Under the pieces are notes generated by a model that did not search any database, had not been told where the DNA came from, and was given only the letters and a program-made list of their open reading frames with translations. 64,000 bases of DNA, taken from NCBI RefSeq assembly GCF_056746865.1, contig NZ_JBWKMP010000003.1, one strand, 5' to 3'. Source of the stretch: a plasmid. Below are positions 2,048-61,468 of this stretch, piece by piece; the first letter of the stretch is position 1, and each line of letters begins with the position of its first letter. A program made the position numbers and the translations under genes.

Positions 2048-2438
2048 AGTGAGTGCTTTTGTGACCTTTTTTAGTAATACAATCCTTTGGTACAAAAAAG
2101 CCGCCGTCCAGTCAATGACGGCGGGCAAAATGAACACTCAGTTAGTTGTATCTGAGAGGGGGGCATTATATTCACTGAATGACGCTTGTGAAGACTCACA
2201 TGTCATCATTTTGTCCTCAAGAATCAGCTCACATCTTGCGCATTCAAGCGTATTTCTCTTTAAAGCCGTGTTTGGACCATTTTGTTGATACGCGAATTTG
2301 GCATCCTCCACGCTCTGAGTGACGAGGTTTACGGACCACCGGGCCATCATATGCATCCATTTTGTGTGAATGGCATTTAGTCGGGAAATAACAAACTGGA
2401 TAAGTTGAAGCCGCGTTAAACGTCATTTCTGGAGGGGT

Positions 2439-2765
2439 ATGTTTGCAGATTATGAAAATCTGGCTGTAGCAGTCATAACATCCCTGCTGAGTGGAACCGG
2501 CGTATTCCTTCTCGGAGTTAGAGACGGGCGCATTTCTGCGTCACTGCTCAACCTCGCGAGTGAATTGTTTACTGCAGTAACTGCCGGGCTTGCGGGGTTT
2601 TGGGTGGCTGATAGCTATGAATGGCCGGAAGGCATCATTTACTGCGTTGTTCTGATTGCCAGTAACAACGGAAGTGAAATTTTACAGGGCTTGAAGTCCA
2701 GAGCTAGTAACGTCTTGAATCTCTTAAGCGTAATAGCGAGTGGGGGAAAAGGTGGAGAGAAGTAA
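2439..2765 (+). CDS. Small three-TM membrane protein, putative holin (LydA position)
   Basis: 108 aa with three hydrophobic segments; RBS ggagg; first gene of an operon that continues into a DarA-sized gene. Confidence 0.4.
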   Translation: MFADYENLAVAVITSLLSGTGVFLLGVRDGRISASLLNLASELFTAVTAGLAGFWVADSYEWPEGIIYCVVLIASNNGSEILQGLKSRASNVLNLLSVIASGGKGGEK

Positions 2766-3211
2766 TGGGTGACTTTGGAAATTATTTCATTTTTATCATG
2801 GCATTTGTTGCCGTTATTGACCGTTTCTTATTTCGTCGCAAGAGTGTTGATATTTTGAGCATTGGCGAAGCTGTAGTGAAAGAGTCTGCTATAGCGTTTC
2901 CCGTGTCGCTTCGCGTTAAGCGAAGCTGGGTAAGCAATGCACAAATCGAATATTGGTTGCAGGACTTGAAAAATCCATCTGTGGTTATTTCGGGGAAAAC
3001 AAGACCAGTTGACGCATCAAAACGCGGTGAGAGAGAAGAATATTTGCTCATCGACACGAAATATCTTGAGCCAGCGAAGTGGGATCTAAAGGTCACATTG
3101 ACTAACGGTAATTGCCGCCTGAATCCGCTTTATCGCATTTTCCCTATCAATGACTGCATAGAACGTCAGTTTATGATTGAAAAGTGTGAAGGAGACTGGA
3201 ATGTCAAATAA
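2765..3211 (+). CDS. Hypothetical protein (LydB position, possible antiholin)
   Basis: 148 aa, start coupled to the preceding gene, RBS ggtggagag; function inferred only from position. Confidence 0.3.
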   Translation: MGDFGNYFIFIMAFVAVIDRFLFRRKSVDILSIGEAVVKESAIAFPVSLRVKRSWVSNAQIEYWLQDLKNPSVVISGKTRPVDASKRGEREEYLLIDTKYLEPAKWDLKVTLTNGNCRLNPLYRIFPINDCIERQFMIEKCEGDWNVK

Positions 3212-6139: not shown

Positions 6140-6201
6140 CTGTAAGTCCATAAATCACACACTTTTTACACTTCCTGCTTTCTATGTAAGGGGAGTGTAT
6201 T

Positions 6202-8343: not shown

Positions 8344-8575
8344 AAGTTTCCTTATGCAATTTATCCATCATGGGCGATAAGAATAGTAACACAAAAGATA
8401 TAAAACACAACAAAAATGTCTATAAACATAACTTCCTTGTTTGGTGGTTGCGTTTTTGGAAAAGCATTTCCGCATATGAAAAAACATCAGCATATGGTGA
8501 AAACAACGAAAAATTACTGATGAAATCACACACTGGATAAGCTGCCACGAAATCGGAAACCTTTTGCGGTGAATC

Positions 8576-10274: not shown

Positions 10275-11273
10275 ATGCAATCACTGAATACCGTTACGGA
10301 TCGCTTCTCCCTGGTAGAGAAAATCCGCAAACACACACCTCAGAACAATCGCAATTACGTTATCCAGTCGGTACGAGACACATTCAACTCGCCAGAAACA
10401 AAAGAGCGTATCGCACTGGGTGAGATGTATGGTTATTACGGTCATGGTCGCCGGGCGATGCACTATAACAAAACGAAAAGCCTGGACTTGCCGGAAGTCT
10501 CTGTTGTGATGGTAGATGGGAAGCCTGTTGTATTGGAGAACGTGCCGTCAAACAGGACTATCGACATTTCAATTGACGACAACGGCATTGTTACCCATAC
10601 ACAGGAAATACTGGATACGGACACCGGACGTATTGTTCAGGGTATGATTAATTCTGGCGCAGGTGGTTGGTCATGGGCTACATCTGGTCCAGATTACTCT
10701 GTATCCCTGGTAAAGTCTTTTCACGGTTTTGATTACGTAACTGTGCCTAACTATATCAGCCTCGACAAGAAAAGCCTGATGCTTGAATCAGCAGAAGAAC
10801 GCGACGCGGCGATTCATGCGGCACTTATCGAACAAGGTTTTACCGATAATGCTGCTACGGATCTGGTTCACCACTTTTCAGCAATGAAGAGTCAGCAAGC
10901 CATATTCGAATCAGCACAACGTGAAGTTCTGGAGTCGGAACTGATACATCTTGAAGTGGAAAATATGCAGCTTCGCGACAAACTACGCGACCAGGCCGCG
11001 ATGATGGAAAGCCAGGGGGAGAACGCGAAGAAATGCCGCCGTATTTTGCGTGATGCTATCCAGGAAATGCCTGTTTTTATCAGCGCAGAACAGCGCCGGG
11101 CGCTCTGCCGTATGCAGTCAGAGGATGATGCACGCATTGTCGCAGCGATGCTTGAATCCCTGGGGGCTAATGCCACTTATGGTCTGCCAATATCAGCCAA
11201 TAAACAACAAGAAATACCGGTGAAAGAGAACAAGACGGTGACTCCGCTGATCTTTGTGTCTAAGAGGATGTGA
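10275..11273 (+). CDS. Putative prohead protease / scaffold (Pro-like)
   Basis: 332 aa; globular N-terminal region followed by a coiled-coil C-terminal segment typical of protease-scaffold fusions; coupled to the upstream gene. Confidence 0.4.
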   Translation: MQSLNTVTDRFSLVEKIRKHTPQNNRNYVIQSVRDTFNSPETKERIALGEMYGYYGHGRRAMHYNKTKSLDLPEVSVVMVDGKPVVLENVPSNRTIDISIDDNGIVTHTQEILDTDTGRIVQGMINSGAGGWSWATSGPDYSVSLVKSFHGFDYVTVPNYISLDKKSLMLESAEERDAAIHAALIEQGFTDNAATDLVHHFSAMKSQQAIFESAQREVLESELIHLEVENMQLRDKLRDQAAMMESQGENAKKCRRILRDAIQEMPVFISAEQRRALCRMQSEDDARIVAAMLESLGANATYGLPISANKQQEIPVKENKTVTPLIFVSKRM

Positions 11274-11472: not shown

Positions 11473-12435
11473 GTGAGTATTTTAAATTCAGTTTCAGTTA
11501 CTTTCAACACTTCTGAGTATAAAAACAACACTGAATACCACAAAAAAATCAAAGGTCATCAGTTGAGTTTTTTTGCTCGTCATAGCGGTTTTCTTTCCCC
11601 TTCACATAGCGCCATTATTGCCGAGTTCGCCAACCTGGCCGGAGCTACCGATGAATACATGATCCGTCGCTCATATGCGGATATGTCCGAGATTACAGGA
11701 CGCAGTATTTCTACTGTGCGCCGGGCATTTGCCGAAGCGACGAAGTGCGGAATGCTTGTTAAACAGCATCAGGTAGCGAATAACAATGCTCAGGTGTGTA
11801 ACGTGTACCGGTTTACAACACAATTTCTCCACTTCATTCATGTAGCAATGGAGATAGGGAGTAAGCAGGGCATCAAATTTGCCAACGCCACAAAACTGGT
11901 TAAGCAGTTGATTTCAAAGGTTCGTTATTTTTTTGAAACTGGGAACCCCCTGTTCAAATTGAACAAGTCCCCCCATGTTCAAAATGAACAGCCAATAGAA
12001 AATAAGAGTCACTCTATAGCCAAAAGAAGAGAAAGATCATGCGCGGTTCAGCCAAAGGCTTCACCAGCAGATAGTTCTCAAGCGGATAATGGGGGGCTGG
12101 ATAAAAAACCAGTAATCAGGGAAGAACATACCAACCACTGCCTGGCGGCGGCAAAAGCGAGAGCTGCAAAGCGTCGTTCAGATGAGGGGCACGCAAAACG
12201 GCAGGCTCTGTATCGTACCGCTGAAAAGCTGGCAAAAAAATTTGCATGGATACGTAGTGCCGCTACAGCAGTGAATAAGCCTAAACAATCCAGTGCCCTG
12301 GATTTCTCAATGGATTATTCTGGCTCCCAGGGGTGTGCAACCATTTGTGAAGCCTTTGACCTGATGAAACAGCGTGGCTATCGGTCTGAATTTGACCGGG
12401 AAGACTGGTCAATTCCGGAGGGCTTTCGGGGATGA
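11473..12435 (+). CDS. Hypothetical protein with a winged-helix/HTH-like segment
   Basis: 320 aa ORF, GTG start by ORF track; segment MSEITGRSISTVRRAFAEATKCGML resembles a DNA-binding helix-turn-helix. Confidence 0.4.
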   Translation: MSILNSVSVTFNTSEYKNNTEYHKKIKGHQLSFFARHSGFLSPSHSAIIAEFANLAGATDEYMIRRSYADMSEITGRSISTVRRAFAEATKCGMLVKQHQVANNNAQVCNVYRFTTQFLHFIHVAMEIGSKQGIKFANATKLVKQLISKVRYFFETGNPLFKLNKSPHVQNEQPIENKSHSIAKRRERSCAVQPKASPADSSQADNGGLDKKPVIREEHTNHCLAAAKARAAKRRSDEGHAKRQALYRTAEKLAKKFAWIRSAATAVNKPKQSSALDFSMDYSGSQGCATICEAFDLMKQRGYRSEFDREDWSIPEGFRG

Positions 12436-12850: not shown

Positions 12851-13075
12851 ATGGTTAATGCCAATCATTGCTCACGTCCAGAATTCATCTGGCGTTTCCA
12901 CTCCCTGCAAAAACATTGTGATCACTTCGCAATTGCCGCAACTGAAAAAGAAGCCCGTTCTCTGATCCCTGATCAGTATGGCGTTCTCACTGGTCGTTTC
13001 TCTACTTCCCCACAACCAAACACTAATCCCTGGTATCGCAATATTACCAATCCCGGCATTGCGGAGGCTCACTGA
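12851..13075 (+). CDS. Icd-like small protein (immI-like module 1)
   Basis: 74 aa; paralogous to 54810-55025 (shared EFIWRF...AATE.EAR motif); stop overlaps the start of the antirepressor-like gene. Confidence 0.55.
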   Translation: MVNANHCSRPEFIWRFHSLQKHCDHFAIAATEKEARSLIPDQYGVLTGRFSTSPQPNTNPWYRNITNPGIAEAH

Positions 13076-13782
13076 TGGATATCTGCATTCTCGAAAAACT
13101 ATCAATGACCAGCATTGAGATTGCGGAGCTGGTGGGAAGTCAACACTCTGACGTTAAACGTAGTATTGAGCGTATGGTTGCTCGAAGCATTATCCGAAAA
13201 CCGCCAATGGCTGTTTTCGAAAAAATCAATAACTTAGGATTGCGTCGTGGCGTTGAGGCTTACGTCTTCGAAGGCGAGCAAGGCAAACGAGACAGCATTA
13301 TTGTCGTTGCGCAGCTCTCTCCCGAATTCACCGCCCGGCTGGTGGACCGCTGGCGCGAACTGGAAGAACAAGTACGCCAGCCGTTGACCGAAATAGAGAT
13401 GATCGCTGCAATGGCTGCGAATGCAGTTCAGCAGCAAAAGCGGCTTCATGCTGTTGAGTCAAAGGTTAGCCAGGTCGCTGAAACCGTCGAGCAGATCAAG
13501 AAAGGCAACATACCAGAAGGCTACATTGGCTACCGCCAACTGGCGGCGAAATGCGGCCTGACTGAAGCCAAATGCCGTAACCTGGTCAACGCTTACCGGA
13601 TCCCCACAGATACGCATGAGTTTTTGACGCCAGAGGGGGTATTGTCGCGTCGTACTATTGTGGCCTTATCTCCCTTCATGAATGCCTTTACCCTGATGAT
13701 GTCGGAGGCTGAACACCGAGGAAAACGCTGGTATCACCCAAGGATGGGGCAATTCCAGGTAATCGGTTGGGGAGGCGAGTGA
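13075..13782 (+). CDS. Antirepressor-like protein (Ant/Rha-KilA-type N-terminal domain), module 1, possibly truncated
   Basis: Paralogous to 55025-55966 over the N-terminal and middle regions (identical block EGEQGKRDSIIVVAQLSPEFTARLVDRWRELE); ORF ends early compared with the paralog. Confidence 0.6.
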   Translation: MDICILEKLSMTSIEIAELVGSQHSDVKRSIERMVARSIIRKPPMAVFEKINNLGLRRGVEAYVFEGEQGKRDSIIVVAQLSPEFTARLVDRWRELEEQVRQPLTEIEMIAAMAANAVQQQKRLHAVESKVSQVAETVEQIKKGNIPEGYIGYRQLAAKCGLTEAKCRNLVNAYRIPTDTHEFLTPEGVLSRRTIVALSPFMNAFTLMMSEAEHRGKRWYHPRMGQFQVIGWGGE

Positions 13783-13979
13783 TGGACATCATGCAGGCGG
13801 TAAAAAAAATCGGGGAAGGACAGGCTGAAGTGTGCCGCCGTAAAGCATGGAGTGTTGGTGTATGGGTCTGGCCTGATAATAGCTCTACTACTGGATGGTT
13901 TTGTATTAATGGATACCAGATCCGGGAAGTCGATTTATCGACGGCGGATGCAGTCGGTAATGATTGGATCGTAACTTGA
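13767..13979 (+). CDS. Separate-frame ORF matching the C-terminal DUF2829-like part of the antirepressor paralog (frameshifted ant or ant2-like)
   Basis: CRRKAWSVGVWVWPDN...ADAVGNDWIVT aligns with the C-terminus of 55025-55966; overlaps the 13075-13782 ORF by 16 nt in another frame. Confidence 0.4.
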   Translation: MGRRVMDIMQAVKKIGEGQAEVCRRKAWSVGVWVWPDNSSTTGWFCINGYQIREVDLSTADAVGNDWIVT

Positions 13980-13987
13980 AGTGTGAT

Positions 13988-14012
13988 GCCCCGGCTTGGC
14001 CGGGGCTTTTTT
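13988..14012. terminator. Bidirectional rho-independent terminator between ant-like (+) and the peptidase gene (-)
   Basis: gccccggc-ttg-gccggggc followed by tttttt. Confidence 0.6.
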
Positions 14013-14496
14013 ATGCCTCATTAGTTGAGGTTGCTGCGTCTCCGACTGGTAACAGAGCTGTATTGCGTGGTTCGCCAGCAGGCCAGCGATAGCCAGACAC
14101 TCTTGATGTTGGGAATGCGCGAATATTAACAGCATCCCCCTGGTTCCCACCCAAGACAAGCAGATCGCCATTGGCGCGGTGTCCGACAACAAAGCCTACA
14201 TGCCCACCGCCTGCGCGAGTAAATACAACGATACATCCGTATGCCGGTGTATCTAATTTCTCGCCCCAATCCAGATAGGATTTTGCCGACTCAAATCTTG
14301 TTGAGCGGATACCTACACGTTCCAGCATTGCACCAACAAATGCAGCGCACCACGGCGTTTCGTCGTCTTTAATTCCGCTGCGCTTAATATCCCGCCAGAA
14401 CTGAACGATCTCAGGATTGTGTTTCGCTCCTTTTATTTCGGTGACTCCAATATTTTTACGGGCCTCAATAAGCCAGCGAGGTTCAATGTTTGCCAT
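14011..14496 (-). CDS. NlpC/P60-CHAP-like protein (TIGR02594-type), putative cell-wall peptidase
   Basis: 161 aa; conserved Cys in PWCAAFV and His in GGGHVGFVV, consistent with a papain-like Cys-His peptidase. Confidence 0.55.
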   Translation of the reverse strand: MANIEPRWLIEARKNIGVTEIKGAKHNPEIVQFWRDIKRSGIKDDETPWCAAFVGAMLERVGIRSTRFESAKSYLDWGEKLDTPAYGCIVVFTRAGGGHVGFVVGHRANGDLLVLGGNQGDAVNIRAFPTSRVSGYRWPAGEPRNTALLPVGDAATSTNEA

Positions 14497-14633
14497 ATAT
14501 TTCTCCCGCTCATGGGTTAATAAGTAGGCAAACTATGGTGAGTATGTGATTTTGACGGTAGTGTCGTTCATCCCTGAAAATAACATTCTCCATACCCTCT
14601 CAAACCGAACCGCTTAAGGCGGATTTAACGGTT

Positions 14634-28487: not shown

Positions 28488-28880
28488 ATGGAGCAAATCA
28501 GTAGCGCCGAAATAGCGGATATCATGATCAGGGCTAACTGCTATCTGACGGTCACCGAAATCACCAGCCGTGCAAAAGCACAATATCCTCACCTTCATGT
28601 GTCGCGCGTAAACGTAAATAACATCATACGTTTTTTTGTTCGTTCCAGTCGTGCCATTTGCGAAATAGACGACCGCGTATACCCCCGGAAATATTGGTTA
28701 CATGGCCTGAATGGATACCAGTTCAAGGTGCGCGGGCGCACTCCTGAATTCGGTCGGCTGTTGGTGAAAAACACCAACCGAAAGATAGAAGCTCAATTAC
28801 GAAAGGAGCAGCGTCAGTTGGTGGCGATGACTAACCAGCTATGGAACGCCGCTGTGAAAAAACGTGAGGCTTCCCTATGA
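28488..28880 (+). CDS. Hypothetical regulator-like protein in the Lpa position (immediately upstream of pacA-like)
   Basis: 130 aa, RBS ggggg-ataa-ATG, overlaps the pacA-like start; function inferred from P1 synteny only. Confidence 0.4.
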   Translation: MEQISSAEIADIMIRANCYLTVTEITSRAKAQYPHLHVSRVNVNNIIRFFVRSSRAICEIDDRVYPRKYWLHGLNGYQFKVRGRTPEFGRLLVKNTNRKIEAQLRKEQRQLVAMTNQLWNAAVKKREASL

Positions 28881-57373: not shown

Positions 57374-57587
57374 GTAAACAAACTGAAGTTTTATGTTACA
57401 AAAGCAAACATCTACGCCAAAATGACTTAGGCCAAATTCAGCGCGAATAAAAAAATCAAAAAAATTGTTGACACTATTCTGGAAATCACAATCTGGACAA
57501 AATCCATTGCGCAAACGGCTCCCGTTGAAGGTTCTTTTGACGACTAACTTTCAGCCGATGCGCGGTAGGGAGTCATAACGCCAAAGC

Positions 57588-58292: not shown

Positions 58293-58623
58293 TCAACTCA
58301 GTAGCTTTGTTAACTCCCTTAATACCAGGTAGAAGAGTAACAAAAATACTAACGCCAGTATTTGCGTGGTCAACGAGGCGTTCATAAACAGAACAATTAG
58401 CTTTAACAATTCGAGAATAACGTCCATGTCATTCACACTATTTAATTTTTAATCTACAGCCAGCAAACAATGAAGCTGGCCCCCGCATAAAGATTAATGA
58501 AAGTCACTTGTCACCAGTGAGGGGATTTATGAACCACATCCCCCTGAACTGGTGGACTGTCTGTTTCTCGCATTTCACACCCTGCATACAGTTCCCCCCA
58601 GGTTATGACTGTGAGGAACTGTT

Positions 58624-61305: not shown

Positions 61306-61468
61306 CGATCATTTTATCCTCCATGATTATTAATGAATGTCATAATGATAGCGCACTGTTGCACCGTGCGCAAGTGCATATTGTAACAATTCCCCTCCTC
61401 CATCCAAAATCACAATCTCCCGAAAATCTTCCTTTCGATACCTGATAAATCGACCTTTGAGGACGCTT

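Follow-up and report, generated by a model that had tools for sequence, protein, structure and literature searches.

A TIGR02594-type cysteine peptidase gene as the probable endolysin gene of a D6-like phage-plasmid

We analysed a 64,000-nucleotide (nt) stretch of plasmid DNA (NCBI RefSeq assembly GCF_056746865.1, contig NZ_JBWKMP010000003.1; hereafter the window), most of which can be aligned with Escherichia phage D6, a P1-family plasmid prophage, and focused on a minus-strand gene for a stand-alone cysteine peptidase, the orthologue of D6 orf16. The comparisons described below suggest that this gene probably encodes the endolysin of the D6-like (P1-family) phage-plasmid, a reading to which we assign a probability of about three in four, because neither a homologue of P1 Lyz nor any other candidate was found, homologues of the peptidase lie in holin-endolysin cassettes, a late-promoter-like site precedes the gene, and the gene occupies a slot resembling that of P1 lyz. 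The coordinates of all features are collected in Table 1.

The protein matched the TIGR02594 profile (NCBIfam) over the full length of the model (positions 2-132 of 132) with 145.3 bits against a curated cutoff of 70.55 (E 1.2e-42), and Pfam CHAP with a score over the gathering score (E 9e-8); the original prediction, made from the letters of the window, had named such a profile search as a check. Cys50, His99, Asn118 and Gln119 were invariant in 19 homologues with identities as low as 47%, and an AlphaFold2 (AF2) model with a predicted local distance difference test (pLDDT) value of 85.5 displayed the predicted papain-like alpha+beta fold of the superfamily, with the cysteine at the N-terminus of a helix. 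Taken together, the profile, the invariant Cys50/His99 and the predicted fold confirm the product as a TIGR02594-type NlpC/P60-CHAP cysteine peptidase, bearing out the earlier description of a Cys/His papain-like enzyme of this type. A sequence search of the PDB returned only a chance match to GAPDH (E 0.11), and structural neighbours were therefore taken from the AF2 model. The family comprises 8463 clusters at 50% identity (E <= 1e-3), with 553 phage records.

P1 Lyz is a T4-lysozyme-type muramidase that is reportedly exported via an N-terminal signal-arrest-release (SAR) segment. The N-terminus of the peptidase, by comparison, was not hydrophobic: the mean hydropathy of the first 30 residues was -0.54, and the maximum KD19 value, 1.29, fell in the core of the protein, as compared with 2.07 at residue 6 in P1 Lyz. 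Neither a signal sequence nor the combination of an N-terminal SAR segment and homology to Lyz was found in the peptidase.

Homologues of the P1 holin LydA and of its antagonist LydB are encoded in the window, and LydA would be the partner that lets a cytoplasmic peptidase reach the wall. When P1 Lyz, LydC, LydD and LydE were used as tblastn queries against the window, D6 and the complete plasmid pEC361_3, only chance matches were obtained. The annotations by the D6 authors and by PGAP named no muralytic gene beyond the peptidase and the Sit tail transglycosylase, and a Pfam scan of 20 D6 orphan open reading frames (ORFs) of at least 105 amino acids (aa) detected no muralytic domain. Within the sensitivity of profile methods, the peptidase is the muralytic enzyme of the genome apart from tail lysins. 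These searches also bear on the possibility that it is an accessory muralytic enzyme, working beside an unrecognized main endolysin and, for example, broadening the range of cleaved bonds or of hosts. Two muralytic activities are known in some phages, and for roughly half of the D6-like ORFs no function has been assigned, but neither tblastn, nor the PGAP names, nor the Pfam scan of the 20 orphan ORFs yielded a second candidate, and the universal retention of the gene at one position in five genera, under strong purifying selection, fits an essential role; we therefore consider an accessory function unlikely.

Judged by gene order, the nearest homologues outside the D6-like lineage fill the endolysin slot of lysis cassettes. 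In the Escherichia coli lambdoid phage vB_EcoM-705R4 (69% identity), Q is followed by a hypothetical ORF, a holin with three transmembrane segments, the TIGR02594 gene, two small ORFs and the terminase; in Providencia PSTCR7 (62% identity) the order is TIGR02594 gene, holin, two hypothetical ORFs and terminase; and in Pseudomonas P8749 (Septimatrevirus, 42% identity) it is lipoprotein, holin, endolysin and Rz-like gene. The P2-like Aeromonas phages P05B and phiA051 encode a holin, the TIGR02594 protein, a phage protein and an Rz1-like LysC (PMC11292799, PMC10709362). All five stand-alone proteins belong to the same family as the peptidase, are of the same size, share 42-69% identity with it and carry a C-terminal S-x-S/N-E-A tail, and in several phages the existing annotation of stand-alone TIGR02594 genes is endopeptidase or endolysin. 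The annotation of a Rhizobium phage homologue includes a peptidoglycan-binding domain, and ICP1 gp207 combines the same catalytic domain with an N-terminal extension of ~75 residues, a two-part layout (extension plus catalytic domain) that is typical of endolysins.

The same comparisons weigh on the second role that had been offered for the protein, that of a virion-associated lysin packaged in the tail or baseplate and opening the wall locally at DNA injection. A late gene would be compatible with such a role, and tail hubs are among the proteins with this domain. The peptidase, however, is a bare 161-aa catalytic domain, without fusion to a structural or attachment module, and its gene lies outside every tail or baseplate operon, between ant/orf17 and darB, while its nearest stand-alone homologues adjoin holins rather than tail genes. 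D6-like phages already possess a P1-like Sit-type tail transglycosylase, and assigning the peptidase to the virion would leave the phage without an endolysin candidate. The 'tail lysozyme' label itself comes from a domain-level match alone: the match to PHROG 1259 ('baseplate hub and tail lysozyme') was confined to profile positions 987-1146 of 1179, that is, the C-terminal ~160 positions, which explains the misleading RefSeq name of the D6 orthologue. Of the two roles offered in the original prediction, that of endolysin is thus well supported by the lack of Lyz or any other candidate, by the cassette homologues and by the late-type site described below, while the bare domain and the presence of Sit make the entry role quite improbable.

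The upstream regions of lydA and prt have a box in common, and a D6-type motif, AAATCACAnACT-N3-YAnnnT, was derived from the D6 and window sequences. It had to be derived anew because AAGTGACTT-N4-TAnnnT, the late-promoter consensus given in the P1 annotation, was absent upstream of the peptidase gene, lydA and prt in the window. In D6, the motif lies ahead of orf16 and of the genes homologous to the mat, 23, pmgB/sit, R/S/U, lydA, ddrB, prt and 7 late operons of P1. A position weight matrix (PWM) trained on the eight late-operon sites, with the orf16 site left out, gave its top score on either strand of the window at the site upstream of the peptidase gene, which scored 24.7 bits, while shuffled sequence yielded no more than 18.8; the sites of prt, 7, ddrB, mat and lydA came next with 21-24.5 bits. 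The top-scoring site ends 35 nt before the ATG of the peptidase gene. The motif was kept ahead of the gene in MIN14, PSS10 and Shigella dysenteriae despite unrelated intergenic DNA, and recognizable variants precede it in Enterobacter and Leclercia. The window also contains a homologue of the late-gene activator gene lpa, the product of which is presumably the regulator of the late-promoter-like sites. The motif therefore suggests that the peptidase gene is probably transcribed late, in an Lpa-type manner.

This upstream site likewise bears on the idea that the gene is a 'moron' expressed in lysogeny and coding for an antibacterial toxin, a type VI secretion system (T6SS)-type effector or a factor remodelling the host wall. 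A scan with the sigma-70 consensus found no minus-strand promoter upstream of the peptidase gene, and the site that is present matches the motif of the morphogenesis and lysis operons. In addition, the protein has no signal peptide and no LysM module, and neither an adjacent immunity gene nor VgrG/PAAR accompanies it. T6SS amidase effectors (Tse1/Tae1, Tae3 and Stenotrophomonas LysM-TIGR02594) belong to the same superfamily, some with a TIGR02594 domain, but they come with linked VgrG and immunity genes and are delivered by the T6SS, and none of that context surrounds the peptidase gene. A function of this kind is thus very unlikely.

Several further observations concern the motif. The D6-type motif differs from the P1 -22 box, although the reverse complement of the latter is similar to AAATCAC. 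A perfect P1-type pattern (AAGTGACTT-tcat-TAATCT) was found at 58491-58509 on the minus strand, between mat and gene 26, facing the stretch equivalent to the tiny D6 ORFs orf76 and orf77. The 137-bp intergenic region upstream of the peptidase gene contains two divergent, back-to-back late-promoter-like sites, one directed to the peptidase gene and the other, AAATAACATTCTccaTACCCT (14578-14598, plus strand), directed to darB; the latter scored 18.6 bits, the seventh best value in the window and slightly below the shuffle maximum. This late-type site is unlike the P1 annotation of darB, in which a sigma-70 promoter is given.

Diverged relatives from S. dysenteriae, Enterobacter, Citrobacter and Leclercia lack the immI module (icd-ant-orf17), and their peptidase gene stands straight after prt-pro-repL, invariably on the opposite strand. 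In P1, lyz-lydD-lydE are encoded on the opposite strand in convergence with prt-pro and are driven by the late promoter LPlyz. As the opposite orientation and the convergence with prt-pro are common to both, the peptidase gene appears to occupy a slot analogous to that of P1 lyz. P1 Lyz (gp17) would therefore share with the peptidase a presumed role, a kind of slot and the LydA/LydB partners, although the two proteins have no homology and the peptidase lacks a hydrophobic N-terminus. In the Citrobacter (L016 3529-3822, minus strand) and Leclercia (L017 3519-3809, minus strand) plasmids, darB is replaced by leftward genes for a protein of ~850-1000 aa and an acidic 97-aa protein; since a terminator just ahead of the peptidase promoter motif closes off these genes, the peptidase gene stays a separate unit. 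We considered the small ORFs that precede the peptidase gene in the plasmids of Citrobacter and Leclercia as holins and rejected them, as their products are acidic and soluble and have no transmembrane segment.

From these elements we infer the timing of expression, holin dependence, bond specificity and role in lysis of the peptidase. Transcription would be monocistronic and late, probably Lpa-dependent, starting from the box and -10-like element upstream of the gene and ending at the hairpin past its stop codon, and translation would proceed from a strong Shine-Dalgarno sequence. A soluble peptidase with a competent active site would build up in the cytoplasm late in the cycle, restricted by its compartment; because it has neither a signal nor a SAR sequence, it would accumulate there and lysis would be strictly holin-dependent. 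The enzyme would then leave through LydA holes in the inner membrane, with LydB setting the timing, and would cut the murein stem peptides, the likely bond being gamma-D-Glu-meso-diaminopimelic acid by structural analogy, after which spanins would complete the disruption of the envelope. The protein might instead be an amidase of the cytoplasm with a substrate other than peptidoglycan, such as a glutathionylspermidine-type CHAP enzyme or a hydrolase of proteins or peptides, but the structural neighbours and the location of homologues in lysis cassettes leave this reading only a slight chance of being correct.

A number of points weigh against assigning the peptidase as the endolysin. Stand-alone TIGR02594 genes elsewhere are contiguous with holin and spanin genes, whereas the window gene stands by itself, on the opposite strand and ~11 kb from lydA/lydB; the lysis genes of P1 are likewise dispersed, and the linkage is found for the homologues in other phages. 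Spanin genes were not identified, and the late promoter is a prediction from the motif. Many D6-like proteins are 'hypothetical', with about half of the ORFs having no assigned function, and an unrecognized primary endolysin is therefore possible. Finally, we found no verifiable TIGR02594 member whose structure has been solved or whose cleavage site has been defined biochemically.

As an instance and in kind, the peptidase gene is already known: D6 orf16, in identical frame and of identical length, is annotated as 'putative peptidoglycan hydrolase' (ASR76417.1). The orf16 protein (97% aa identity) and the 'TIGR02594 family protein' annotated in over 100 D6-like plasmids agree with the window gene in length, neighbours (icd-ant-orf17 and darB), upstream motif and hairpin, and differ from it by few substitutions and, in some plasmids, by an extra ORF between the promoter and darB. 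The orthologue in a Salmonella D6-like plasmid has already been proposed as a possible member of the lysis functions (PMC6799933). What is added here is the argument for an endolysin, together with the late-promoter-like motif and the analogy between the slots of this gene and of P1 lyz, and nothing in it will surprise a specialist. For annotation, it indicates that RefSeq over-transferred the name 'baseplate hub subunit and tail lysozyme' and that the PGAP name 'TIGR02594 family protein' is uninformative on function, while the evidence supports the name endolysin for this gene in D6-like phage-plasmids. The comparison with P1 further suggests a non-orthologous swap within the P1 family, in which a SAR lysozyme was replaced by a cytoplasmic cysteine peptidase while LydA/LydB were retained, and which predicts strictly holin-dependent lysis in D6-like phages, unlike in P1.

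To our knowledge, few NlpC/P60 endolysins of Gram-negative phages have been biochemically tested, which makes the family a reasonable enzybiotic lead. Among them are the Neisseria gonorrhoeae prophage endolysins Phi1gp518 and Phi3gp1649, single-domain NlpC/P60 proteins of ~19 kDa with Cys54/His105, encoded in an endolysin-holin-spanin cassette, which are reported to be muralytic when purified, the methods including zymogram and turbidity assays; according to the same preprint, the only other phage NlpC/P60 endolysin shown to be active was D29 LysA (bioRxiv 10.64898/2026.07.09.737475). The likeness of the gonococcal enzymes to the peptidase is at the NlpC/P60 level and by description, as their membership in TIGR02594 could not be confirmed. 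The DL-endopeptidases MepS of E. coli, LytE/CwlO of Bacillus subtilis and RipA/RipB of Mycobacterium tuberculosis share just 15-20% identity with the peptidase and are secreted or lipoprotein housekeeping autolysins.

The C-terminal 25 codons of the peptidase gene encode a tail, L-P-x-G-x-A-x-S-x-N-E-A-COOH, that lies outside the limits of the TIGR02594 and CHAP models and ends in S-T-N-E-A-COOH. The motif [L/V]-S-x-[N/S]-E-A-COOH was conserved right up to the C-terminal end in 42 of 150 family representatives (50% identity clusters), with LSTNEA, STSEA and SKSEA as typical endings, and was present in stand-alone and N-terminally extended forms and absent from C-terminally extended ones. Arg132 was conserved in 93% of the members with the tail versus 51% of the rest. 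The tail might be a functional element, either a pseudo-substrate or latch holding a cytoplasmic DL-endopeptidase inactive or off murein precursors until the holin fires, or a docking peptide for a partner, although we consider this a speculative and rather improbable idea.

The 2.5-kb region around the peptidase gene is 92% identical to D6 (MF356679) and 98.8% identical to ~90-kb non-mobilizable E. coli plasmids such as pEC361_3, and more than 100 plasmids carry it. A 681-bp region containing the gene was found in 96 of 5426 complete E. coli genomes (~1.8%), every copy being plasmid-borne and none chromosomal, and D6-like plasmids with the gene also occur in Salmonella, Shigella, Enterobacter, Citrobacter and Leclercia. 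The pairwise ratio of nonsynonymous to synonymous substitution rates (dN/dS) between the gene and its orthologues was 0.03-0.14, indicating that the gene is real and under selection; its product has a mass of 17.5 kDa and an isoelectric point of 8.6. As had been stated, it runs opposite to all its neighbours, being the sole substantial minus-strand gene between pro/repL/icd/ant/orf17 and darB, all on the plus strand. Its convergence with the antirepressor gene, also noted earlier, holds at the level of the operon only, since orf17, which is coupled to ant, is the gene that directly faces it.

The stop codons of orf17 and the peptidase gene are 31 nt apart, and the GC-rich hairpin in this gap had been taken as a shared bidirectional terminator. 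The hairpin is indeed shared and stable on both strands (-22 and -19.8 kcal/mol), but a T/U-run follows the stem on the plus strand only, where the terminator scan also made its only call, while on the minus strand the stem is followed by CAUCACACUU, without a U-tract. The hairpin is therefore a canonical intrinsic terminator for the plus strand only, and the term bidirectional is not supported. The same hairpin is found in D6 and D6-like plasmids, and a hairpin of different sequence closely follows the peptidase stop codon in three of four diverged relatives (S. dysenteriae, Enterobacter and Leclercia).

Table 1. Features of the peptidase locus and related sites (window coordinates unless stated otherwise; CDS, coding sequence)
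Feature	Position	Strand	Details
Peptidase CDS	14011-14496	-	161 aa; ATG start; orthologue of D6 orf16
Codon of Cys50	14347-14349	-	predicted catalytic
Codon of His99	14200-14202	-	predicted catalytic
Codons of Asn118/Gln119	14140-14145	-	predicted catalytic
C-terminal tail (25 codons)	14011-14085	-	
Shine-Dalgarno sequence	14502-14507	-	GGGAGA, 5 nt before ATG; sequence reading
Late-promoter-like site of peptidase gene	14532-14552	-	box AAATCACATACT (14552-14541), 3 nt, -10-like CATAGT (14537-14532); PWM
Hairpin	13988-14006	both	8-bp stem, 3-nt loop
Motif site upstream of lydA homologue	2386-2406	+	
Motif site upstream of ddrB homologue	6152-6172	+	
Motif site upstream of prt homologue	8523-8543	+	
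Motif site upstream of mat homologue	57483-57503	+	
Motif site upstream of gene 7 homologue	61407-61427	+	
Motif positions in the D6 record	72120, 54144, 45511, 38135, 31531, 27747, 25241, 67413		D6 coordinates
lydA homologue (holin)	2439-2765	+	tblastn with P1 LydA, E 3e-20
lydB homologue (holin antagonist)	2765-3211	+	tblastn with P1 LydB, E 2e-25
lpa homologue (late-gene activator)	28488-28880	+	81% identity to D6 orf4, annotated lpa-like
pro	10275-11273	+	
repL	11473-12435	+	
icd	12851-13075	+	
Antirepressor gene (ant)	13075-13782	+	Rha/Roi-type
D6 orf17 homologue	13782-13979	+	65 aa; PHROG 7385; translationally coupled to ant (TGATG overlap)
darB	from ~14634	+	

In pEC361_3, an orf17-related sequence is apparently fused to the C-terminus of a second antirepressor. 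A Tad2-like Thoeris anti-defence domain (PF11195) was detected in D6 orf6 (L003 5054-5629, minus strand; E 1e-9) and orf114 (L004 38126-38566, minus strand; E 8e-23), the pEC361_3 counterparts of which bear the PGAP names 'MW1434 family type I TA system toxin' and 'DUF2829 domain-containing protein'; the similarity of orf17 to the Tad2-like domain of orf114 was not significant. The interval between the peptidase promoter and darB (~14560-14630 in the window) corresponds to a variable cargo slot, which is empty in the window and in D6 and is occupied in other plasmids (pMUB-MIN14-1 of E. coli, L012 2231-2728, and pPSS-10_3, L013 2273-2644), where some carry a 165-aa 'carboxypeptidase-like regulatory domain' ORF and another a 123-aa hypothetical ORF.
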